DNA of 64,000 nt, from NCBI GenBank assembly GCA_964493485.1, contig CAZBMQ010000001.1:43616-107615 (forward strand), given 5' to 3'. Shown here piece by piece: positions 5,926 to 54,845 of the stretch; within the stretch, counting starts at the first letter, position 1; the number at the start of each line of letters is the position of its first letter. The notes beneath the pieces were generated by a model. The model was not told the DNA's origin, searched no databases, and saw nothing but the letters and a program-made list of their open reading frames with translations. The position numbers and the translations under genes were made by a program. This stretch comes from an uncultured Candidatus Saccharibacteria bacterium. GTDB taxonomy: Bacteria > Patescibacteriota > Minisyncoccia > Minisyncoccales > JANBVM01.

Positions 5926-8073
5926 TTATTTCCTTTTCCCCTCAATAATTTCTTGAGCAATATTCGGAGGCACCTCAGCATATCGGTCAAACTCCATTGT
6001 AAATGTTCCTCTTCCTTCAGTCAAGCTTCTCAGCGTGGTAGCATATCCAAACATTTCAGATAAAGGTACATCTGCGTCAATAATTTTAAGATTTAATCTA
6101 TCTTTTGTTTCTTTTATTTTTCCTCTTCTTGAGGCTAAATCCCCTATCACATCACCAAAGAATTCAGCAGGCACAATCACCTCCAGTCTCATTATTGGCT
6201 CCAATAATACAGGATTTGCTTTCTTTGTTGCTTCCTGTAATGCCATAGAAGCTGCTATCTTAAAAGCAAACTCTGAAGAATCAACCTCGTGGAAAGAACC
6301 ATCATAAAGAGTTACCTTCATATCAACCAAAGGATAACCTGCAATAACTCCTTTCTCCATTGCCTCTTTTACTCCTTTTTCAACAGCAGGAATGAATTCG
6401 CTTGGTATTATCCCTCCTTTAATTTCGTCTTTAAACTCAAAACCCTCTCCCCTTTCTTTTGGCTCTAATCTAAGCCAAACATGTCCATATTGTCCTCTAC
6501 CCCCTGATTGTCTAATATATTTGCCCTCAGCTTCTGCCATTGCCTTAATTGTTTCTTTGTATGCAACCTGAGGTCTTCCCACATTAGCTTCAACATTAAA
6601 TTCTCTTTTTATTCTATCTACAATAATCTCTAAATGAAGCTCACCCATACCAGAAATAATCGTCTCTCCAGTCTCCTCGTCTCCCTTCACTCTAAATGTA
6701 GGGTCTTCTTGCGACAATCTCTTTAAAGCCGTATTCAACTTCTCTTCATCTGCTTTATTTTTTGGTTCAATACGAATAGAAATAACAGGCTCTGGAAAAG
6801 TAATCTTTTCTAAAACAATTGGATGACCTTCATCGCAAAGAGTATGGCCTGTAATAGTCTTTTTCAACCCAATAGTAGAAGCAATGTCTCCAGCAAACAC
6901 CTCATCAATATCCTCTCTCTTATCAGCCCTCATTCTTAAAATCCTGCCTATTCTCTCTTTCTCACCTGTGGTGGTATTTAATACATAAGAGCCTTTATTA
7001 AGATGACCTGAATACACCCTGAAATAGCTTAATGTTCCGACATATGGATCTGCAGCCACCTTAAACACCAGAGCAGCGAAAGGTTCTGAGTCATCACTCT
7101 TTCTTTCAATCTGTTCTCCGGTTTTTGGATCAGTTCCCTTCACTGGAGGCAGGTCAAGAGGGCTTGGTAAATAATACACTATTGCATCTACAAGAGGCTG
7201 AACCCCTTTGTTTTTCAAAGCTGAGCCGCAAAATACAGGGATGAGTTTGTAATTTACTGTGGCTTTTCTCAAAACATTTCTTAATTCTTCGATAGAAATC
7301 TTTTCTTGTCCTAAATACTTTTCTAAAAGCTTATCATCTTCTGCAACAATCTTCTCTACTAATTTTTCTCTCCATTCTTTTGCTTTTTCCAATAAATCTG
7401 AAGAAACCTCTTTTTGCCCTTCTGGATGAGGATTGCCGTTTTCATCCAAAAGAGGAATCTCTATTACTTTCTCACCAAACTCTCCTTCAAATTTAATTGC
7501 CTTCATCTTCAGCAAATCGATTACTCCTTTAAAATTCTCCTCAGCCCCAATTGGAAGCTGAAGAGCTACTGCATTAGGAGATAACTTGTGCCAAATTGAC
7601 TCTAAGCTTTTTTCGAAATTAGCTCCCATACGATCCATCTTATTAATAAAACATATTCGAGGCACATTGAATTTATCAGCTTGACGCCATACTGTCTCTG
7701 ACTGAGGCTCTACACCAGCAACACCATCAAAAACAACAACCCCTCCGTCAAGTACGCGCAGGGATCTTTGCACTTCAGCTGTAAAGTCAATATGGCCTGG
7801 GGTATCAATAATGTTTATTTTATAATCTTTGTCTTCCTTGTTTTTTAAATCATCAGGCAGCCAGAAACAAGTAATGGCAGCTGAAGTAATTGTAATACCT
7901 CTTTCTCTCTCTTGCTCCATCCAATCTGTAATAGTGGTTCCTTCATCCACATTCCCAATTTTATATGTCATACCAGTATAAAATAAAATACGCTCGGTAG
8001 TTGTAGTTTTACCAGCATCAATGTGTGCAATAATTCCTATGTTCCTATATTTTTCAAGTGGATATTGTCTCAT
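5926..8073 (-). CDS. fusA: Elongation factor G
   Basis: [20 protein letters not shown] and NKMDR motifs. 715 aa, located between rpsG and tuf. Confidence 0.95.
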
Positions 8074-8078
8074 AATAA

Positions 8079-8124
8079 TGTTTGATGTTTGATGTTTGAT
8101 GTTTGATGTTTGATGTTCGATGTT
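8079..8124. repeat. Tandem heptamer TGTTTGA x6.5 (mRNA sense AACAUCA) immediately 5' of the fusA ATG
   Basis: Read directly: tgtttga repeated at 8079, 8086, 8093, 8100 and 8107, then the variant tgttcga at 8114 and a partial tgtt. Confidence 0.9.
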
Positions 8125-10346: not shown

Positions 10347-10421
10347 CGGGGCATGGTGTAGCGGCAACATGCACCCTTGGGGTGGGTGTGACGGCGGGTT
10401 CGACTCCCGCTGCCCCGACCA
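10347..10421 (+). tRNA. tRNA-Pro (anticodon GGG), CCA encoded
   Basis: Hand-folded cloverleaf. Acceptor CGGGGCA/TGCCCCG, D stem GTGT/ACAT, anticodon stem CACCC/GGGTG with loop TTGGGGT (GGG at 10379-10381, G37). T arm GCGGG-TTCGACT-CCCGC, followed by ACCA. Confidence 0.85.
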
Positions 10422-17493: not shown

Positions 17494-17561
17494 ATTGTTC
17501 TAAATTTAATTTTCCAAGACACGACCTTTAATAAATTAAACTAAATTTAATTTATTTTATC

Positions 17562-19889: not shown

Positions 19890-22800
19890 TTATATTACCT
19901 TTTCCTTTTTTTGGAAGTACCAGGAAAGGAAGAAGCTAATCAAACCCAACAAAATGAATATCCATACATTCACACAGAAAGGCAATGTCTGTAAATAGCA
20001 TAGTACAGTTAATACCACAAGCAAAAGCATCCATATAAACCAAATCTTAGCTTGCTTCTTTCTTAACTTTCTCCAGTCATCCATAGCTTTTAACAATGAA
20101 TATCCAGCAAATACCAAGATTGACCAGCAAGGAAGACAGAGACAAGCGCCCCCAAACATTCCAGAAAAAAATCCACCAATACTAGCTAAAAGATTAGCAA
20201 AGAAGTTTCCTTCTGCTGGCTGCACTACCTCAGCCATCATTTCCTCTTCTGGAGCTTCAGCTTCTTCTACTACTTCTTCTTCAGAAGAAGTAGCTACAAC
20301 CTCCTCTTCAGGAAGACCTTCCTCTGCAGGAGGTACTTCTTCTGGACCACCCTCTGTTTCAGCAGGAGCGGCTTCTGGAACAGAAGGAAAAGTCTCTTCC
20401 ATCTTGCATAATGTGGAAAAACTATACTCTGGACTAAATACGGGAGGTGAAGCTGAAGAAACAATTCTGTAATAATAGGTAGTACAAGCTTTCAAGTCTG
20501 GAACAAATATGCTGTGCAAACTTACCATTCTAGTATCTGCTGGGTCAGGATAGGCATGAGCATAGCCATAGTAAGGCGGACTAGATTCATCTAAATTATG
20601 AGGTTCGTCTTCTCCAGAATAGATTATCTGGCTTGTAGAATCTAGATTGGTCTGCCAGTTAACAATTACATGATCCTCTGTAATGTCGAAATGATATTCA
20701 TTAAATATCCTCAATTCAGTTGTACCGCCTCTTCCACCAGCACCTTGTCCTCCTTCTCCTGTGCATACTGGATTCTGTGCACAATCTTCATCATCGCAAT
20801 CTGTATAACCATCGCAGTCATCATCTAATTGGTTATCGCAGACCTCTGAAGCTCCGGGATTAATATTAGAATTTGAATCATCGCAATCATCTCCTACCAA
20901 GCATAAAGGATCAGAATAGGCATAATAACCATCTTGGTCTGTATCAATACAACCATGTCCAGTGCCAGTGGTCCATCCTCCGCCGCCTCCTCCGCCGCCT
21001 CCTCCATCTCCAGATCCCTGACAATCAGAATCATTATCATCAACATCTCCATCACAATCATTATCTATTCCATCATCACAAATTTCAGTAGCCCCAGGAT
21101 TTACAGCAGAATTGGTATCATCACAATCTCCATCCTGAGTAGCTGTGTAGTCGCCTGAAGGCTCTGTTAAACATTGGCTATCACCTGTCACCCCATAACC
21201 ATCTTGGTCTGAATCTTTATAATAATTAGTGCATTCAGGCCCCTCTTCACAAGCTGGATTCTGTGCACAATCTTCATCATCGCAATCTGTATAACCATCG
21301 CAGTCATCATCTAATTGGTTGTCGCAGACCTCTGGAATAGGTTCTGAATCTGGAACACATTCTCCCCAAAAACCATCTTGCGTACATGTCTGAGTTCCAG
21401 CTGAACAAATACCTAATTGTCCTGTATCACAAACTCTTTGTTCTCCTGGTTCACACTCTTCTTCAATCATACAATCAGCTGAACAGCCATCACCATTTTC
21501 ATTGTTTCCATCATCACACTCTTCACCTTCTTCTACTATTCCATTGCCGCATACTGGTCCTGGAGGAGTTTCTTGTTCACAGAGGCAGGTATCCAAATTA
21601 CATACTGTGCCTTCTGGACAAGCACATTCATAGCCTATTTCACATTGTTCCTCTCCTTCTAAAACCCCATTACCACAGACTGGAGCACTGCATTCTTCAG
21701 TTGGTTGATAATATAACCTTACCCTGTCCCTATGAACATTGGTAATACTGCAGATATCACCTGTATTTTCTCCAGAGACAAAATTATATTCGTCATTTCC
21801 TGGTTTATCATTTTGAGGATCTCCTTCTACAATACCACACCCTTGGGTATCAGGTTTTTCATAACCTCCATCTGGTCCATTTTGAATCTGATCTATTAAG
21901 GCATTAATAAACTCAATATCAGCCTTAACAGATTCTCTTGTTTCTTTATGGTTAAATCCATAAGCGCTTATCTCAACGAAAAGACCAGTTTCATTTTCTC
22001 CTCTTTGAATATGAAGCCCAGGAACATCATCCTGGAAGGAGCTGACCTGAGGATCTATAATAGGATTTGTTCTATTGTCGGTTGTCAAAGGAATTACAAC
22101 CAAGGTTTGTCCGAAAGGCTCTGAATCATTCCCTACATACACATAATCAGACATATCAGCATGTTTGATAGCTCCCTCAGGATCGTAATTAGCAAAATAG
22201 GTTATATGAACCTTTAAGAAAGATTCACACTCTTCTTCAATCATACAATCAGCTGAACAGCCATCACCATTTTCATTGTTTCCATCATCACACTCTTCAC
22301 CTTCTTCTACTATTCCATTGCCGCATACTGGTCCTGGCTCTGGTTCGCAAAGACAGGTATCAGTATTGCACACATATCCGGGACAACAATCATATCCTAC
22401 CTCACATTCCTCACCCGGTTCTAAAATACCGTTCCCACAAACAGGTTCTGTTTCTTCTTGATAATTACCAAAATCCACATATACAGGTTCTTCACCTCCA
22501 AATGTAATCTCCTGATACAATGGTGTGGAGTTTATCCATCCTGACTGTAAAACCTCCTCTATTCTATAATCACCAGGCTCAACAGAGTTAAAGCAATAAT
22601 TACCATTTTCATCGGTTATATCACTGTCAACAACCTCCCAATCAGAAATACAATGAATAGCTTTTACTCCGTCTACATCAAAACCATCAACAACTCCTGT
22701 AAAATCATTAGGGTCTGTAACATCCTCCAGCTTTAAGTATTTAGCCCAAGCCAACCCATTTAAATCAAATTCACTATCCAAACACCCTATACCTAAATCC

Positions 22801-24107
22801 TCCCATGTACCGTCTGCACCTGTTTGCGAGGCAAAAACATGAACTTTTTCCGGATACTGAGTGCAACTTGGACTGCCATAAGAGGTCTCAACAACCTCTA
22901 TGTCGTTCCCAGCCCCATTAATAATATAATTATCAAATTTCAAAACCAAAGAACCACCAAAGCCCAAAGAAACAAAATTCAATGTATCATTGTATTGAGC
23001 AGGTCCTAAAGCCTTTGAAGAATCTGTTCTTTCTATATCAAGAGGATCTCCATTGCTCTTTGTACCCTGATTATATTCAATAACCTCATCTGCCCATTCT
23101 TCTCCTTCTTCACAAGCAACAGGTTTCTTTAATTGAATTGTCCAACCTGATAACCCTTGCTCTTCATCATTAATACCGTTTTGGTTCTCATCATAAAATT
23201 TTACTCCAGAGATATCACATTGCTGTTCACAAAGGCATGTATCTAAATTACATACTGTGCCTTCTGGGCAAGCACATTCATAGCTTATTTCACACTCTTC
23301 ACCTTCTTCTAAAATTCCGTTTCCGCATACAGGCTCTGGCTCTTGAACAAGAGCGTTAAAGGCAACACAATAATAAGTTTCTCCTAACTGAGGATTTTTA
23401 ATATAGTCGTAATTGTCGAAATTTAAAATATCATCATGACACCACATCTCAGCTGATATATCATTTTGAAGACTCCCTGGAGGATTAGCAAAGGGAATAT
23501 ATCCCTCTTGTAAATTTTCTCTTACCCAAATCTTTGAAGTTCCTTCTTGTAAATCATAAATCTCTACTTTGGCTGGAATTCCTCCTTCACCTGTTGAAGA
23601 ATCAAAATCATTCCACCCCGTGCCCTCTGGAGCAGGACCTATATAATCTCCTTGCTGTTTTTGTCCTTGAGGCCCCCATTGGAATTCCCAACCAGAAGCT
23701 AAAAAACATCTGCCCTGACTATTAGCAACATAGTCAGCCGCAGTATCTGCAGTAATAACCTCAGGCTCTCCCAGCTGTAATCCTTTTAAGCCCCAGTTTG
23801 GCAAATCTTCTTCACTTTCACAAATTACTTTATATGCAATAATCGTAAGTGGTGAGGGCTCTGGTTCCTCAGGTTCGCAGAGACAGGTTTGAGTATTGCA
23901 TACTGTACCCTCTGGACACATACACTCCCAACCTATCTCGCATTCCTCATCAGGATCTAATATGCCATCACCACAATATGGTTCACAAGGATGGCAAGCA
24001 AATGTGTTTCGAAAAAAACCAAAAAGTGCAAAACCTATAATAAAAGTAAAAAATAGTATTGCCTTTAAGTTTTTTTCTGAATTATTTCTTAGAGTTAATT
24101 TTTCCAT
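19890..24107 (-). CDS. 1405-aa Cys-rich giant surface protein
   Basis: N-terminal signal anchor. Repeated CGNG-[IV]-[LV]-E-x-GEECDDGN..DGCS..C modules (myxobacterial-type Cys-rich repeat, by recollection). One Cna-B/SdrD-like unit (DENGNYCFNSVEPGDYRIEE). DNDCDG metal-binding-like repeats and a Gly10 run. Acidic E/P/A/V linker, then C-terminal TM helices. Confidence 0.8.
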   Translation of the reverse strand: MEKLTLRNNSEKNLKAILFFTFIIGFALFGFFRNTFACHPCEPYCGDGILDPDEECEIGWECMCPEGTVCNTQTCLCEPEEPEPSPLTIIAYKVICESEEDLPNWGLKGLQLGEPEVITADTAADYVANSQGRCFLASGWEFQWGPQGQKQQGDYIGPAPEGTGWNDFDSSTGEGGIPAKVEIYDLQEGTSKIWVRENLQEGYIPFANPPGSLQNDISAEMWCHDDILNFDNYDYIKNPQLGETYYCVAFNALVQEPEPVCGNGILEEGEECEISYECACPEGTVCNLDTCLCEQQCDISGVKFYDENQNGINDEEQGLSGWTIQLKKPVACEEGEEWADEVIEYNQGTKSNGDPLDIERTDSSKALGPAQYNDTLNFVSLGFGGSLVLKFDNYIINGAGNDIEVVETSYGSPSCTQYPEKVHVFASQTGADGTWEDLGIGCLDSEFDLNGLAWAKYLKLEDVTDPNDFTGVVDGFDVDGVKAIHCISDWEVVDSDITDENGNYCFNSVEPGDYRIEEVLQSGWINSTPLYQEITFGGEEPVYVDFGNYQEETEPVCGNGILEPGEECEVGYDCCPGYVCNTDTCLCEPEPGPVCGNGIVEEGEECDDGNNENGDGCSADCMIEEECESFLKVHITYFANYDPEGAIKHADMSDYVYVGNDSEPFGQTLVVIPLTTDNRTNPIIDPQVSSFQDDVPGLHIQRGENETGLFVEISAYGFNHKETRESVKADIEFINALIDQIQNGPDGGYEKPDTQGCGIVEGDPQNDKPGNDEYNFVSGENTGDICSITNVHRDRVRLYYQPTEECSAPVCGNGVLEGEEQCEIGYECACPEGTVCNLDTCLCEQETPPGPVCGNGIVEEGEECDDGNNENGDGCSADCMIEEECEPGEQRVCDTGQLGICSAGTQTCTQDGFWGECVPDSEPIPEVCDNQLDDDCDGYTDCDDEDCAQNPACEEGPECTNYYKDSDQDGYGVTGDSQCLTEPSGDYTATQDGDCDDTNSAVNPGATEICDDGIDNDCDGDVDDNDSDCQGSGDGGGGGGGGGGWTTGTGHGCIDTDQDGYYAYSDPLCLVGDDCDDSNSNINPGASEVCDNQLDDDCDGYTDCDDEDCAQNPVCTGEGGQGAGGRGGTTELRIFNEYHFDITEDHVIVNWQTNLDSTSQIIYSGEDEPHNLDESSPPYYGYAHAYPDPADTRMVSLHSIFVPDLKACTTYYYRIVSSASPPVFSPEYSFSTLCKMEETFPSVPEAAPAETEGGPEEVPPAEEGLPEEEVVATSSEEEVVEEAEAPEEEMMAEVVQPAEGNFFANLLASIGGFFSGMFGGACLCLPCWSILVFAGYSLLKAMDDWRKLRKKQAKIWFIWMLLLVVLTVLCYLQTLPFCVNVWIFILLGLISFFLSWYFQKKEKVI
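20768..20848. repeat. 81-nt intragenic repeat, copy 1 (80/81 identical to 21254-21334)
   Basis: Encodes EVCDNQLDDDCDGYTDCDDEDCAQNP. Read directly. Confidence 0.85.
21254..21334. repeat. 81-nt intragenic repeat, copy 2
   Basis: See 20768-20848. Confidence 0.85.
21450..21563. repeat. 114-nt intragenic repeat, copy 1 (apparently identical to 22224-22337)
   Basis: Encodes PGPVCGNGIVEEGEECDDGNNENGDGCSADCMIEEECE. Compared by eye. Confidence 0.85.
22224..22337. repeat. 114-nt intragenic repeat, copy 2
   Basis: See 21450-21563. Confidence 0.85.
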
Positions 24108-28229: not shown

Positions 28230-29018
28230 CTAGCGTAAAATTCTGTTAATCACAGAGTTAATAACATTCATAACATTTGCCTGTGCCCAAGCATTACCTG
28301 TGAAGATAACACCCCCATTACCGCCTCTGCCGCCATTTCCGCCATCACCACCATTGTTTCTCTGTTCTCCCCATGCACAATGGCCACAACCGCCGCTGTT
28401 TCCATTATGGTTGGCGTCACCAGCATTACCGCCATTGCCGCCGTCCTCACCATTGGCTCCGTTTTGACCGCTTTCAGCATCAACAGATACTGTATTGTAA
28501 ACATCAGCCCAGTCTTTATTGACAACTATTATGTCATCAATACAGCCGCAAGGAGGATATGATGGTCCACATCCGTTTCTTTCAATACAAGAATCGTTGC
28601 ATGGCTCATTTTCAGGAGGACAAGCGCAGGCATTAATCTTGGTATCATTTGTATTGACAAGATTATTTACATTTGCCCGTGCCAAAGCATTCCCAGTATC
28701 CACAAAGCCTCCATTGCCGCCAGCTCCTCCATTTCCGCCATTACCACCATTGTTTCTCTGGTCGCCTCTCCAGTTTCTATTGTAAGAAGCAGAACCAGCA
28801 TTACCGCCGTTGCCGCCATCATCACCATTGGCTTCGTTATAGCCAGTGCTGGCACTTACTTCTACCCTGTTCTTCACTACTGCATCCTTTTTGTTCACAA
28901 CTATAATATCGTGACCAAAAAATCCAAATGGGAAAAACCCATCTCCTGCAAATACAGGTGCAGCAGCAGAAACGAGTAAGGCTGCGGTGGTAAAAACGCC
29001 TAAAATTTTCTTGTTCAT
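28230..29018 (-). CDS. 262-aa secreted Gly/Asn-rich protein, two copies of the shared module each split by a GGNGGNGG tract
   Basis: Signal peptide MNKKILGVFTTAALLVSAAAPVFA. Module halves VVNK..V.N.V.V.A.[ST]G.N.ANG ... NNGG[ND]GGNGG.GGNGG.[IV].TGNA.A.ANV.N, present twice. Confidence 0.7.
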   Translation of the reverse strand: MNKKILGVFTTAALLVSAAAPVFAGDGFFPFGFFGHDIIVVNKKDAVVKNRVEVSASTGYNEANGDDGGNGGNAGSASYNRNWRGDQRNNGGNGGNGGAGGNGGFVDTGNALARANVNNLVNTNDTKINACACPPENEPCNDSCIERNGCGPSYPPCGCIDDIIVVNKDWADVYNTVSVDAESGQNGANGEDGGNGGNAGDANHNGNSGGCGHCAWGEQRNNGGDGGNGGRGGNGGVIFTGNAWAQANVMNVINSVINRILR

Positions 29019-29039
29019 TTTTGTTTTGAAATTATTTAC

Positions 29040-29300
29040 TCCGCCTCAATCCTATATAGGATATCAACGGATCTCTCTGCTATTTTTTCGTTTGCCCGAT
29101 AAGTCTTTCATTTTTGTCAGCAGAGATTTTTTCGGGCAACGCGACCTTTGCTAGGTTCTAATCCCTGAACCTTGCTCCGAACTCCATAGAGCTCGGGACT
29201 CGCCCCGAACCTTTATGGATCGGGGCATGGCACAGGATAGAGCCCAAGCTTTAATGCATTTTGATGCACTAAAGCCAGAGTTCTATTATTGTGCTTTTAA
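29040..29300 (-). promoter_or_regulatory. Structured ~260-nt leader upstream of the Gly/Asn-rich protein gene
   Basis: Stems seen: GCCCCGA/TCGGGGC, CCGARCTC/GAGCTCGG, GCTTTARTGCAT/ATGCACTAAAGC, CGTTTGCCCGA/TCGGGCAACG interleaved with TCTCTGCT/AGCAGAGA (pseudoknot order), and palindrome ATCCTATATAGGAT. Mismatches become G-U only on the minus strand. Confidence 0.5.
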
Positions 29301-29311
29301 AAAAAATAAAA

Positions 29312-29334
29312 AACTTCTCCTTCCGGAAGAAGTT
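29312..29334. terminator. Hairpin AACTTCT(CC-TTCC-GG)AGAAGTT flanked by A-run and T-run
   Basis: Read directly. It lies inside the long minus-strand leader. Confidence 0.5.
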
Positions 29335-29728
29335 CTTTTTGGAACTAGGTATTTATATTTATTTGTATCAATCTGCCATTTCCTCCCTGGCATTTAAATC
29401 TCAATCTAGTCCTCCCCTAAATTGATACAACACTACCTAGTCCTCCTATCTAGATAGCGATGAATTTGTCATGTTTTTCTATTTTATGCTATTTCAAAAA
29501 ATAATGTTAAGCGGGGAAAAATTTTTTGTCCTTATCTTATGTCCTGCTTTTACCTACTCTATCTCTTTTTAAAACAAAAGTCAAGAAAACTCTCAACCAT
29601 AAATAGCCTATTGTCCTAATCTATACTATTTTCGAAAAAAGTCAAGAAAAACATATTCTTTTTAAAATATCTTAATTTCTTTTACAAAATTATTTCTTTC
29701 TATTCTCTTTTTGTTTTTTAAAAACAAA

Positions 29729-29793
29729 AAGGCTGTCTTTGGGCGCCATAACTAAGGAGGAATTCATTTAGTACGGCGCCCAGAGACAGCCTT
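29729..29793. terminator. 24-bp hairpin (19-bp lower stem plus ACTAA/TTAGT) with a 12-nt apical loop GGAGGAATTCAT, flanked by A-run and T-run
   Basis: AAGGCTGTCTTTGGGCGCC (29729-29747) pairs with GGCGCCCAGAGACAGCCTT (29775-29793). There is one T-G (plus sense) or A-C (minus sense) position. Confidence 0.6.
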
Positions 29794-29861
29794 CTTTTTT
29801 CTGTTTACTACGAAATATTTAACTTAATTAAAAACATAGAATTTGCACTCTATGTTTCTTT

Positions 29862-29889
29862 ATTATACCAAGTCAAAAAATTTTGTCAA
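29862..29889 (-). promoter_or_regulatory. Near-consensus promoter TTGACA-N16-TATAAT pointing toward the leader and secreted-protein genes
   Basis: -35 is the complement of 29884-29889 and -10 is the complement of 29862-29867. Confidence 0.6.
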
Positions 29890-29894
29890 TATTT

Positions 29895-29975
29895 CCTGTC
29901 CTATCTTCTAACACCTTGTCCTACCTTATATCATATAATTAGGACAATTTAAAGATAGGACAGGAGTCTTAGGAC
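29895..29975. promoter_or_regulatory. Nested inverted repeats built from TGTCCTA/TAGGACA between the divergent promoters
   Basis: Outer pair CCTGTCCTATC (29895-29905) / GATAGGACAGG (29954-29964), perfect 11 bp. Inner pair TTGTCCTA (29916-29923) / TAGGACAA (29940-29947). An extra TAGGACA lies at 29970. Confidence 0.55.
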
Positions 29976-29983
29976 AAAGTTAT

Positions 29984-30012
29984 TTGACTTTTTTAATTTT
30001 AAAAGGTAATAC
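29984..30012 (+). promoter_or_regulatory. Candidate promoter TTGACT-N17-TAATAC for the GT2 operon
   Basis: -35 at 29984-29989 and -10 at 30007-30012. ATG at 30049. Confidence 0.4.
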
Positions 30013-30048
30013 AAGAATATAAATTCATAATATGTCAAACATAGAAGT

Positions 30049-31383
30049 ATGAAAACATCTCTGATTGAGCTTACAAATGAATTATATCAATTAACTCTTC
30101 TTTTTCCGAAAAAAGAACCTCTGCGCTACAAACTTAGAGAAACAGCTGATGATATCTTGGCAGATTTTATTTCTCTTACTTCCTATTCCTCTATATATCA
30201 ACAAAATGAAATAGTTCTACAAACTAAAAACTTAAAAACAAAACTAGAAATCCTTGATAGTTTTTTGGAAGTCGCAAAGAATCAAAATTGGGTCAATAAA
30301 GAAAATATTTTAAGGTTAAAAGAGAAATATCAAAAATTATTAAAACCTTTCCTGCTTCAAGATATAAAAATTTCAATATTAATCCCCTGCTTCAATGAAG
30401 AAAAATCAATACGAAAATGTATTGAGTCTTGTTTAAACCAAACAAAAAAACCCTATGAAATTGTAGTAGTAGATGATGGAAGCACAGATAGAACTCCGGA
30501 AATATTAAAAAGTTTTGAAGATAAAATAACAGTAGTACGGATTCCTAAAAATACTGGAAATAAAAGCTATGCACAAGAGTTTGGATTAAAATTTATTCAC
30601 GGAGATGTTTTCATTACAACTGATGCAGATACAATATTAGATAAGAATTTTGTAAAAAGAATCTTTTTAGATTTTAAAGATAGAAAAGTAGCAGCAGTGG
30701 CAGGTTATGTAAGGTCCTTAAAATATAATTGGTTAACTACCTGCAGAGAACTGGATTATATTATAGGACAAGATATACATAAATTAGCACAATCATATAT
30801 CAATGCCTTGTTTGTTATACCTGGATGTGCAGGCGCTTTCAGAACAGAAGTGTTTAAAAAATATATAGGTTTTGACCATGACACAGTAACAGAGGACTTA
30901 GATTTTACCTACAAACTTCATGAAAACCAATTCAAAATAATATATGATAAAAAAGCCATAGCATACACTCAAGATCCTCAAAATCTCAAATCCTATATCA
31001 ACCAAATGAAAAGATGGTATAGAGGCGGATGGCAAAACCTAATAAAGCATCTTAAATCCATAAGCAAAAAGGAAGTAAATGTGTTCGAGTTATCCTTAAT
31101 TTATATAGAAGGACTTATGTTCTCAGCTCTGTTGTTTCTAATACCTCTGCTTAATATTAATTTCTTTAGACATTACATCTTCTTTTATTTTGCTGTTTTA
31201 TTTGGATGCGCAGTTTATGGAGCCCTCACAAGAAAAAGGCTTGATTTACTATTCTGTTTCCCTTTTTATTTCTTGATTGTATTTTTAAATGCCTGGATAT
31301 TCTGGGAAGAATTTATTAAAGAAATAATATTTAAAAATGGAGACTTGGCCTGGTTTAAACCAGAAAGAGCCAGAATAATATGA
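30049..31383 (+). CDS. Processive family-2 glycosyltransferase (PgaC/NodC/IcaA-like) fused to an N-terminal ~110-aa four-helix-bundle-like domain
   Basis: GT2 motifs: SILIPCFNEE, VVVDDGSTDRT, TDADT, TEDLDF and QMKRWYRGGWQ (QxxRW), with C-terminal TM helices. The N-terminus (LTNELYQLTLLFPKKEPLRYKLRETADDI) resembles the 23S-IVS-type four-helix-bundle family (recollection). Confidence 0.75.
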   Translation: MKTSLIELTNELYQLTLLFPKKEPLRYKLRETADDILADFISLTSYSSIYQQNEIVLQTKNLKTKLEILDSFLEVAKNQNWVNKENILRLKEKYQKLLKPFLLQDIKISILIPCFNEEKSIRKCIESCLNQTKKPYEIVVVDDGSTDRTPEILKSFEDKITVVRIPKNTGNKSYAQEFGLKFIHGDVFITTDADTILDKNFVKRIFLDFKDRKVAAVAGYVRSLKYNWLTTCRELDYIIGQDIHKLAQSYINALFVIPGCAGAFRTEVFKKYIGFDHDTVTEDLDFTYKLHENQFKIIYDKKAIAYTQDPQNLKSYINQMKRWYRGGWQNLIKHLKSISKKEVNVFELSLIYIEGLMFSALLFLIPLLNINFFRHYIFFYFAVLFGCAVYGALTRKRLDLLFCFPFYFLIVFLNAWIFWEEFIKEIIFKNGDLAWFKPERARII

Positions 31384-36656: not shown

Positions 36657-36708
36657 AAATAGTATACTTTTTGTTAAATAAATAATATCGACCTTTTTAA
36701 AAATACAA

Positions 36709-38201: not shown

Positions 38202-38547
38202 AAATTAAAACTTGATATTTTTTAACTCTGCCGACCTTTGTCTTTTTAATCTCAGCCATCTTAATCTCTTCAAACACATCAAAAATCCCTCCGCATCTTT
38301 CACAAAAAAAATGGGCATGGGGAGACAAACATCCATCATAATGTCTTATCTCGCAAGGAAGTTCTTGAATTTCTCCTTTTTCTTTAAGATTGTTCAGAAT
38401 TCTATAAACAGTCCCCTTGCTTATCCGAGGAAGTTTCTTCCTTACATTTAAATAAACCTCTTCGGCTGAAGGATGGGATTTTGTTTTTTTTAAATAATCC
38501 AATATAATCTTCTTCTGAGAAGTGATTCTTTCTTTTACACTCTTCAT
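38167..38547 (-). CDS. Fur-family metalloregulator (PerR-like by context)
   Basis: Winged-helix N-terminus (HPSAEEVYLNVRKKLPRISKGTVYRILNNL), HFFCERCG and CKKC zinc site. Neighbours are rbr and an SOR remnant. Confidence 0.85.
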   Translation of the reverse strand: MKSVKERITSQKKIILDYLKKTKSHPSAEEVYLNVRKKLPRISKGTVYRILNNLKEKGEIQELPCEIRHYDGCLSPHAHFFCERCGGIFDVFEEIKMAEIKKTKVGRVKKYQVLIYGICKKCEKSK

Positions 38548-42765: not shown

Positions 42766-43599
42766 TTAGAATTTTTCTATATTTAATAAGCGACCTTTTG
42801 AATAGGATTCTGCCAATTCTCTTGAATAAGGAATCTCTTCTTCTATTTTTGTTTTAAATTTTCTAAGCACACTTATAACTTCTCTCTTATCTCCCAAGTC
42901 TGCTTGATTTAAAATTATCTTAGAGGGAATCTTCAGTTTTTCACACAACCTTAAAATCAAGCCCAAATCATGAGCTCCCATTGGAGTCGGCTCAGTTATA
43001 ATCATCGCTAAATCACAATTCAACAAAGCTGAAATTACAGGACAATGTGTGCCTGGTGCTGTATCAAATAGAATAATGTCAGCTTTTTGTTTTTTAGCAA
43101 AATCTAAAGCAAACTCTTTGGTTCTTAACACAATAGGACCTGTTTCTTCAATGCCAGGATTTGATAAGCCTGTAATCAACCAAAAATTATTTCTTACCTT
43201 ATTAACAAAAATCTGGCCTACTTTTTCCTTTTTCCTTTTTATCGCATTGTTTGGACAAACCATCCAACAAGCTCCACATGAAGAGCATAAATCTTTAATA
43301 AAAACAGGAAACTTTCCAGGAGCCTGGAAAATAGCATTGTTCTTGCAATTCCTTACGCACAATCCGCATTTCTTACATTTTGTCTTCAATAATTTAGGGT
43401 ATTCATTGTAAATATATTTTCTCGGTTTCTTTAGCCTCTCTCCAAGCAACAAATAATCATTTGGACATTCAACATCGCAATCGCATAAAATTATCCTTTT
43501 CTTTCTCTTTACAAACTGCTCTGCTTTCAACACAGCAACTGTTGATTTTCCTACACCTCCCTTACCTCCTGTGATTGCTATCTTTTTTAAATCCTTCAT
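42766..43599 (-). CDS. MinD/ParA-type P-loop ATPase with inserted 2x[4Fe-4S] ferredoxin motifs (copy 1)
   Basis: GGKGGVGKST, CKKCGLCVRNC and CSSCGACWMVCP motifs. Confidence 0.8.
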   Translation of the reverse strand: MKDLKKIAITGGKGGVGKSTVAVLKAEQFVKRKKRIILCDCDVECPNDYLLLGERLKKPRKYIYNEYPKLLKTKCKKCGLCVRNCKNNAIFQAPGKFPVFIKDLCSSCGACWMVCPNNAIKRKKEKVGQIFVNKVRNNFWLITGLSNPGIEETGPIVLRTKEFALDFAKKQKADIILFDTAPGTHCPVISALLNCDLAMIITEPTPMGAHDLGLILRLCEKLKIPSKIILNQADLGDKREVISVLRKFKTKIEEEIPYSRELAESYSKGRLLNIEKF

Positions 43600-45676: not shown

Positions 45677-45749
45677 ATTTTTCAAAAAAATAAATTATTT
45701 TAAGAAAAATCGACCTTTCTTCCGCTACATTATGAGTATATACCCATAA

Positions 45750-51261: not shown

Positions 51262-51296
51262 TCTTAATTTTTAATAAATATTAATATCCGACCTTT

Positions 51297-54653: not shown

Positions 54654-54845
54654 AAAGATTAAGTTTTAAAAATTTATTAACTCGACCTCAAAATTTTATA
54701 CTATATTATATTATATATCAATAGAGGTTACAAAAAATGTTGTGGAAAATTATTATTTCTTTCTTTTGCTTAGATGTATGGTATTATCTTATATTTTTAG
54801 TAAAATAAAATAATATAAAGGTCGTATCATCAAATTCACAAAAAT

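Follow-up and report, generated by a model that had tools for sequence, protein, structure and literature searches.

Attenuators and riboswitch platforms, exemplified by the cyclic di-GMP riboswitches upstream of pilus and adhesin genes, are long gene-strand leaders in which a folded element is followed by a stem and a U-tract, and in which alternative pairings are conserved. The 5' stabilisers (the ompA 5' hairpins, S-layer leaders, and the STAB-SD of Bacillus thuringiensis cry3A) combine stable hairpins with a purine-rich single-stranded motif far upstream of the start, and the pseudoknot operators (rpsO/S15, alpha-operon/S4, and phage T4 gene 32) place interleaved helices with A-rich loops within a 5' untranslated region (UTR). 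In the antisense attenuation systems of pT181, pIP501 and pAMbeta1, a small, highly structured RNA carries a loop whose unpaired bases can pair with the 5' portion of a terminator-ended leader, and the 'epsilon' enhancer of phage T7 gene 10, which is complementary to rRNA, is a short stretch of conserved sequence located upstream of where ribosomes usually bind. Here we compare these systems with positions 29019-29345 of contig CAZBMQ010000001.1, numbered within the 64,000-nucleotide (nt) stretch that was analysed (the window), which lie upstream of a minus-strand gene (28230-29018) for a Gly/Asn-rich protein with a signal peptide.

The leader shares with attenuators and riboswitch platforms its length, its gene-strand orientation, its folded element followed by a stem and U-tract, its position upstream of surface-protein genes, and its conserved alternative pairings. 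It differs in that no described aptamer or antiterminator was identified, that there is ~280 nt more structure between terminator and start codon, and that a small RNA encoded next to it, and not a metabolite, may supply the input. Its stable hairpins and its motif, AAAGGUCG, recall the 5' stabilisers, and the AAAGG of the motif resembles the beginning of STAB-SD (GAAAGGAGG), but GUCG misfits the usual anti-Shine-Dalgarno, the genome gives no sign of Shine-Dalgarno usage, the motif recurs ~30 nt before many unrelated genes, and the module contains a pseudoknot. That pseudoknot, with two interleaved helices of 8 base pairs (bp), A-rich loops and covariation, is like the pseudoknot operators, although theirs take in or adjoin the ribosome-binding site and have a known protein as ligand, whereas the one in the leader ends 55 nt before the AUG. 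Antisense attenuation offers a similar arrangement of loop and leader, but the small RNA here is in tandem on the same strand, the complementarity is only 7-12 nt, and any effect on termination is putative. Compared with 'epsilon', AAAGGUCG lies at a larger distance (21-42 nt) and in a genome with no Shine-Dalgarno signal.

We conclude that the leader is conserved, structured and on the gene strand, and that it combines an intrinsic terminator with a pseudoknot supported by covariation and a single-stranded motif found across the lineage. The reading that we prefer, and to which we give an even chance, is that 29019-29345 forms the gene-proximal two-thirds of a ~460-nt minus-strand 5' leader of an operon for secreted and surface proteins, a multi-layer leader in which attenuation at the terminator is followed by protective or switchable folds around AAAGGUCG. 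Transcripts from a promoter near 29.5 kb would mostly stop at the terminator (29299-29340), with read-through set by the element just upstream of it; since in relatives the G-rich arm of this element is complementary to the C-rich loop of a small hairpin RNA, that RNA may join the read-through decision. Transcripts that read through would bear compact hairpins and the pseudoknot, protecting the mRNA, and folding would hold AAAGGUCG ~20-45 unpaired nt from the AUG, near the 21-42 nt spacing of ordinary genes, such that the downstream folds would control the spacing of, or access to, the motif.

More tentatively, two linked claims can be drawn from this. The first is that AAAGGUCG may be an unrecognised lineage-wide signal in Parcubacteria without Shine-Dalgarno sequences, one that marks or recruits the translation machinery or defines the mRNA 5' end ~30 unpaired nt upstream of the starts of leadered mRNAs. 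The second is that the surface operon may be under three-part RNA control, in which a tandem small hairpin RNA pairs with a G-rich arm to affect terminator read-through, and the pseudoknot and switchable hairpins gate access to the signal or its spacing. A large part of bacterial diversity belongs to the Candidate Phyla Radiation, whose members cannot be cultivated on their own and possess reduced, unusual ribosomes, and almost nothing is known of their gene control. The locus offers a conserved RNA regulatory region with defined helices and pseudoknot that could be probed in vitro, and AAAGGUCG offers a concrete possibility for the way in which leadered mRNAs are recognised or matured without Shine-Dalgarno sequences; the motif could also help to predict gene starts and operons more accurately in genomes of this kind.

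The folded leader and its pseudoknot

The gap upstream of the 28230-29018 gene (29019-30048) separates it from a divergent plus-strand glycosyltransferase gene (30049-31383). An initial annotation of this DNA had described a gap of about 1 kb that is GC-enriched near the gene and full of stems, and this description holds: the gap is 1030 nt long, its GC fraction is 0.40-0.57 across 29050-29250 as opposed to 0.19-0.35 farther out, and all of the named stems and interleaved helices are present where they were placed. The proposal of a structured minus-strand RNA upstream of the Gly/Asn-rich gene is likewise borne out, its structure by fold z-scores (for the minus strand of 29041-29296, without the terminator, z = -6.0, and 0/200 shuffles were equal) and its strand by homologs, in which the leader element is always upstream of, and co-oriented with, the homologous gene. 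In the order of transcription, and with H1, H2, H3, H5 and the single-stranded state of the motif taken from the minimum free energy (MFE) fold, its parts are as follows.

29230-29294, minus strand: H1, a rod hairpin of 65 nt that follows the terminator directly
29202-29226, minus strand: H2, a hairpin GCCCCGA...UCGGGGC (GCCCCGA/TCGGGGC)
29177-29196, minus strand: H3, CCGAGCUC/GAGUUCGG, with one G-U pair
29150-29175, minus strand: H4, a hairpin AAGGUUC...GAACCU that abuts the motif
29142-29149, minus strand: the AAAGGUCG motif, single-stranded, 123 nt before the ATG
29074-29139, minus strand: an H-type pseudoknot with A-rich connecting loops, in which S2 pairs TCGGGCAA (29132-29139) with TTGCCCGA (29092-29099) and S1 pairs AGCAGAGA (29119-29126) with TCTCTGCT (29074-29081)
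29041-29070, minus strand: H5, a hairpin with GAGGCGG in its 3' arm, followed by 22 unpaired A/U-rich nt and then the AUG

The pseudoknot was compared in four leaders, those of the window, L002, L020 and L031. Standard pairs occupy 63 of 64 cells (98.4%), and 6 of the 16 pairs have changed on both sides, giving a covariation score that was reached in none of 500 shuffles. When the registers are slid, pairing falls to 37-55%, and an equally good pseudoknot arises directly after GGUCG in only 2, 18, 15 and 13 of 500 shuffles of the sequences taken singly, the lowest value being that of the window. L002 keeps both helices even though a 59-nt insertion has displaced the 3' arm of S1. Together, the pairing, covariation, register and shuffle results indicate that the interleaved helices form a genuine H-type pseudoknot with compensatory changes in both stems, and we regard this evidence, from four hand-aligned sequences, as good but not deep. 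A different arrangement is seen in L021 (647-700) and L032 (~75 nt before the ATG), where a CGACC or UGACC located downstream can pair with GGUCG itself, and GGGGG with the enclosed UUCCCU, to give another pseudoknot that would sequester the motif.

The wider comparison of leaders draws on the upstream regions of twelve homologs (L002, L003, L006, L020-L023, L025, L028 with two tandem genes, L031 and L032), to which a second protein search with query P0002 contributed L031 and L032 as its only additions. The window sequence itself is also present in Logan contig L001 and JGI contig L017. One of the relatives, L002, is an ortholog with a protein that is only 53% identical, and the 263 nt that precede its ATG can be aligned clearly with the minus strand of the window. 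L002 keeps H4 and the block AAAGGUCGCGUU, as well as the 3' half of H1, within which its contig ends; its H2 has an identical stem and a different loop, and in its H3 (CCGGGC/GUUCGG) an A-U pair has become G-U. Relatives thus show both conservation, in the hairpins retained by L002, and covariation, in the doubly changed pairs of the pseudoknot. L020 and L031 have the motif and pseudoknot module in common with the window and lack H1-H3, and H5 is not conserved in position, its L002 analogue (with AAGGAGG) sitting inside the pseudoknot loop. From these alignments, H1-H3 are lineage-specific (window and L002), and the widely conserved features are the motif and the hairpin adjoining it, with the pseudoknot conserved in one subgroup.

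A wider search was made with a DNA pattern built from two conserved leader blocks, which was scanned in genome, viral and metagenome collections. The genome collection gave 3 chance matches, inside coding regions of unrelated phyla, the viral collection none, and the metagenome collection 9 chance matches together with L017, which is identical to the window. As these scans yielded only the organism of the window itself, the window-type leader is rare in searchable data. A literature search found no description of the motif or the leader.

In 10 of 11 family leaders, a hairpin that corresponds to H4, and whose sequence differs between leaders, is predicted to end no more than ~11 nt from GGUCG. 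In six relatives (L003, L006, L021, L022, L023 and L025), the 5' arm of H4 doubles as the 3' arm of a longer upstream hairpin, such that the full-length fold gives the long hairpin and the local fold gives H4. A related alternative can be read from the sequences of the window and L002, in which the 3' arm of H2 pairs with the 5' arm of H3 to form a CGGGG...CCCG hairpin. It is possible that the alternative pairing of H4 acts as a switch, as these fold models would allow.

A shared motif upstream of start codons

All 13 of the family leaders contain AAAGGUCG. Its core, AAGGTCG, occurs 8 times in the window compared with 2.1 expected, a number reached in 0/100 shuffles, and each of the eight copies is found on the coding strand with an ATG downstream of it. 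For seven of them the distance to the ATG is 21-42 nt, and the eighth is the leader copy at 29142:

17522-17528, minus strand
36689-36695, minus strand
38232-38238, minus strand
42791-42797, minus strand
45711-45717, minus strand
51289-51295, minus strand
54818-54824, plus strand

A variant, GAGGUCG, is located at 54683-54687 (minus strand), 25 nt before a 51-codon open reading frame, and in two of the relatives AAAGGUCG precedes VWA genes (L025 4520, at 30 nt; L028 3247, at 36 nt). The genes behind the generic sites are unrelated, and several encode small proteins. On the basis of this distribution, AAAGGUCG looks like a general upstream signal of the lineage and not a gene-specific sensor, and our reading is that it acts as a general signal, either for translation or for the 5' end of the mRNA.

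At the generic sites, the nucleotides that separate the motif from the ATG are rich in A and U and lack a Shine-Dalgarno sequence. In the window as a whole, 4-mers resembling Shine-Dalgarno sequences stand before 7 of the 69 genes, which is below the 13.6% background, and a strong -10-like hexamer is found 4-18 nt before the ATG of 16/69 genes as against a background of 4.5%. The closeness of these hexamers to the ATG suggests that many mRNAs are leaderless. Many genes also have a TGnTATAAT-like -10 element at a distance of 6-9 nt from the ATG, as is seen upstream of 9922, 13245, 39443, 40935, 57139, 59041 and 60889, among others.

Within the family leaders the raw distance from motif to AUG varies from 29 to 218 nt, but removal of the predicted helices leaves 12-45 unpaired nt (33 nt in L025 if a weak 6-bp helix is ignored). 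This unpaired distance resembles the spacing at ordinary genes, from which we infer a role at the RNA level that is tied to the start codon.

Other identities considered for AAAGGTCG did not fit. As a sigma-70 promoter element it has no partner hexamer at a constant distance (20 sites inspected); as the -35 of leaderless promoters it is not accompanied by a proper -10 at -12 to -7; and as a -10 element or discriminator its distance to A/T-rich hexamers varies. It does not fit the consensus of sigma-28, extracytoplasmic function (ECF) or sigma-H promoters. Nor does it behave as a Shine-Dalgarno sequence for an upstream non-AUG start, there being an in-frame stop 9 nt before the AUG at 17522 and disagreement of the frames at 54818.

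The tandem units and the terminator

Two putative transcription units precede the hairpins of the leader on the same strand, the first encoding a small hairpin RNA and the second ending in the terminator.

29862-29889, minus strand: unit 1 promoter from the promoter scan, TTGACA, 16-nt spacer, TG and TATAAT, matching 12/12 consensus positions
29720-29796, minus strand: unit 1 candidate small RNA, a long hairpin (29729-29796) with a U-run (29720-29730)
29481-29510, minus strand: unit 2 candidate promoter, TTAACA, 18-nt spacer and TAAAAT, matching 10/12, assigned tentatively
29341-29443, minus strand: unit 2 structured element, with P1 (29434-29443 with 29341-29351), P2 (29421-29430 with 29363-29372) and the P3 hairpin (29374-29392)
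29299-29340, minus strand: predicted intrinsic terminator, a 13-bp stem (29308-29340) followed by UUUUUUAUUUUUUUU

In at least eight other lineages, the same parts lead up to homologous genes, in the order small hairpin RNA; promoter, G-rich stem element and terminator; hairpins; AAAGGUCG; and start codon. The unit 1 hairpin is common to seven homologs, and in their consensus fold 19 of 25 pairs persist through changes on both sides. A covariance model of unit 1 (R1) scores 53.3 bits on the minus strand of the window and 25.4 on the plus strand, with no other copy in the window, and finds exactly one copy per locus, including that of L003 (47 bits), which is outside the training set; in every locus the gene strand scores 22-59 bits higher. 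The apical loop in the window is C-rich (AUGAAUUCCUCC, 29756-29767, with UUCCUCC inside it), and in relatives an inner apical hairpin is followed by a single-stranded C-rich tract, (A/U)UUCCCC. Unit 1 is a candidate locus-specific small RNA.

For unit 2, weaker promoter candidates of the TTGACT type are present at 29556-29584 and 29618-29645, and a near-consensus TTGACA promoter occupies the equivalent place in L003, L006, L021, L022, L025, L028 and L032. These same seven leaders have the order promoter, element and terminator. The element and terminator of the window fold together with z = -3.4 (1/200 shuffles equal); the P3 loop is the purine sequence GGGAGGAAA, and the unit holds repeated GGAGGA and GGGGAGGA tracts. 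In the other loci, unit 2 has a stem with a G-rich 5' arm (GGGGAA...) followed by a canonical intrinsic terminator, and homology of the window unit to this GGGGAA-stem element is tentative. With the terminator at the 5' edge of 29019-29345, any element that decides termination must lie upstream of it (29341-29475), and the hairpins flagged by the initial annotation are past the decision point.

In relatives, the C-rich tract of unit 1 and the G-rich arm of unit 2 can form Watson-Crick pairs with each other, and the flanks covary. The pairings, with the number of shuffles giving one as long, are:

L025: CUGCUUCCCCAG / CUGGGGAAGCAG, 12 nt, 1/300 shuffles
L032: CACAUUCCCC / GGGGAAUGUG, 10 nt, 5/300 shuffles
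L021: UCAUUCCCC / GGGGAAUGA, 9 nt, 5/300 shuffles
L022: GUUUCCUC / GAGGAAAC, 8 nt, 18/300 shuffles
L028: GUUUCCCC / GGGGAAAC, 8 nt, 48/300 shuffles

In the Portnoybacteria-type loci, CCCCUCC...GGAGGGG hairpins are abundant (L031 1559-2340 and 3345-3680; L020 60-140). These look like a genome-wide palindromic repeat family that replaces unit 1 as the flank of the leader there.

Alternative readings and the wider locus

Several observations weigh against the attenuation reading. The promoters, transcription starts and terminators are all consensus predictions, and no antiterminator pairing was found in the leader. The unit 2 element of the window does not have the GGGGAA/UUCCCC stem found elsewhere, and its pairing with unit 1 spans just 7 nt (UUCCUCC in the unit 1 loop with GGAGGAA in the P3 loop) and is not significant. 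The version of the leader seen in the window is present in only 2-4 sequences; H1-H3 can be compared with one partial sequence only, that of L002, and because the H2 stem is unchanged there it is conserved yet uninformative for covariation. The stem arms of the pseudoknot were aligned by hand because MAFFT misplaced the variable loops. As to the motif, the unpaired distance to the AUG depends on predicted folds, and we know of no bacterial ribosome-binding signal for which ~30 nt is an established spacing. With the canonical 16S tail (CCUCCUUU) only AAAGG of the motif would pair, the organism's own 16S rRNA being outside the window and the fetched loci.

The strongest competitor, though in our view an unlikely one, is a constitutive stabilising leader, whose folds would only protect an abundant mRNA and fix its translation rate, with the terminator ending a separate small transcript and the operon being transcribed from a promoter near H1 or the motif. 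Long structured 5' UTRs are typical of highly expressed genes for surface-layer and outer-membrane proteins, and the hairpins of the leader are near-perfect and stable; at some generic sites, moreover, AAAGGUCG stands beside -10-like A/T-rich hexamers (TATAAA lies 7 nt upstream at 54683). Such a promoter is harder to reconcile with the generic sites as a whole, at which neither a -35 nor a -10 has a consistent spacing to the motif, and with the GC-rich relatives, in whose leaders inspection revealed no convincing promoter between terminator and gene. The conservation of mutually exclusive pairings in six relatives also speaks against pure stabilisation.

Recognition by a protein is a distinctly less probable explanation. 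A regulatory or RNA-binding protein, possibly a product of the operon or a general AAAGGUCG factor, would bind the hairpin, motif and pseudoknot and control translation or decay, in the manner of the pseudoknot operators for ribosomal proteins. An invariant single-stranded 8-mer flanked by structure in 13/13 leaders and the A-rich pseudoknot loops speak for such an operator, and the occurrence of the motif before unrelated genes would be consistent with a global factor. A candidate protein was not identified, however, and the 191-amino-acid (aa) neighbour in the operon had no homologs in a protein search; in addition, since the pseudoknot stem sequences vary freely, protein recognition would need to depend on shape.

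A riboswitch for a small molecule or ion, with the pseudoknot, or the P1-P3 element upstream of the terminator, as its aptamer, is improbable, and among the RNA readings a classical metabolite riboswitch has the least support. An aptamer-like fold does stand directly before an intrinsic terminator, and H-type pseudoknots are the aptamers of several known riboswitch classes. Yet the pseudoknot is separated by >150 nt from the terminator upstream and by 55 nt from the AUG downstream, and so overlaps no expression platform, and the downstream genes encode structural proteins, not enzymes or transporters. Across the family, from few sequences, only AAAGGUCG and the stem arms are conserved, and the one invariant unpaired block is AAAGGUCG, which occurs genome-wide. 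The impression that no known riboswitch is present agrees with a search of the whole window with the covariance models of Rfam 15, in which, at the gathering scores, 0 of 4227 families matched the leader and tRNA-Pro was the only hit; at E up to 10, 28900-30100 gave merely sub-threshold hairpin-type matches, and L002, L003 and L006 gave nothing relevant. ARAGORN found tRNA-Pro (10347-10421) as the only tRNA or tmRNA in the window, and none in the leader. The suggestion of a new cis-regulator is upheld insofar as the leader is conserved and belongs to no described RNA family, and is weakened in that there is no sign of a small-molecule aptamer.

The remaining question for the attenuation reading is that of strand, for which the initial annotation had relied on G-U wobbles. 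These wobbles are real: the H1 core (GCTTTAATGCAT/ATGCACTAAAGC) has one G-U on the minus strand, the whole of H1 has two G-U or U-G pairs and one A-C on that strand, and H3, which reads CCGAACTC/GAGCTCGG with one A-C on the plus strand, has a G-U in its place on the minus. Folding energies in the window do not discriminate between the strands, with values for 29019-29345 of -116.2 kcal/mol (minus) and -113.8 kcal/mol (plus), z ~ -7.3 for both and 0/100 shuffles equal, and with the plus strand slightly more stable for 29041-29296 (-98.7 compared with -96.4 kcal/mol). The orientation thus rests on the homologs, and these decide for the gene strand, which is the more stable in 11/11 other leaders by a margin of 2-25 kcal/mol. 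The G-U pairs of L002, L020 and L031, including two in the H3 of L002, are A-C mismatches when read on the opposite strand. A plus-strand RNA (an antisense RNA or an independent ~300-nt small RNA ending at the same bidirectional hairpin), or a set of DNA palindromes serving as protein sites or a repeat element, is accordingly very improbable, for although the plus strand of the window folds equally well and the hairpin at 29308-29340 also precedes a short T-run on that strand, the homologs favour the gene strand, plus-strand promoter matches are only weak, the stems are conserved by compensation and not by sequence, and a repeat search of the 64-kb window found no second copy of the element, where several would be expected of repetitive extragenic palindromes (REP) or miniature inverted-repeat transposable elements (MITE).

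The product of the gene behind the leader (28230-29018, minus strand) is 262 aa long and has two Gly/Asn-rich repeats; its AlphaFold model has a mean pLDDT of 47, too low for use. The bacterium itself is uncultivated, of low GC and of the Parcubacteria type. Homologs are annotated in Nomurabacteria, Portnoybacteria, Kaiserbacteria and Parcubacteria bins, and the protein family is small and divergent. The gene is the first of an operon in which it is followed by genes for the 191-aa protein, a DUF11/CLIPPER protein of 1017 aa and a repeat protein of 1405 aa, an order that is kept in L003, L006, L021, L028 and L031, and this is probably a major cell-surface operon. The gene for the 1405-aa surface protein (19890-24107, minus strand) contains internal DNA repeats that are 99-100% identical within 20768-22337, one of 114 nt with copies at 21450 and 22224, the other of 81 nt with copies at 20768 and 21254, which suggests recent domain duplication or recombination.

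Elsewhere in the window, a 7-nt tandem repeat at 8078-8124 (6.7 copies of ATGTTTG, as read on the plus strand, with 97% matches) lies directly upstream of the start codon of a gene for a 715-aa protein (5926-8073, minus strand), and slipped-strand, phase-variable control of its expression is possible. In the outer part of the leader gap, TTGTCCTA/TAGGACAA motifs are repeated in both orientations at 29528-29550, 29612-29620 and 29894-29990, and include a 12-nt inverted repeat, CTGTCCTATCTT...AAGATAGGACAG, between divergent promoters. From their arrangement, these sites look like an operator array for a DNA-binding regulator.

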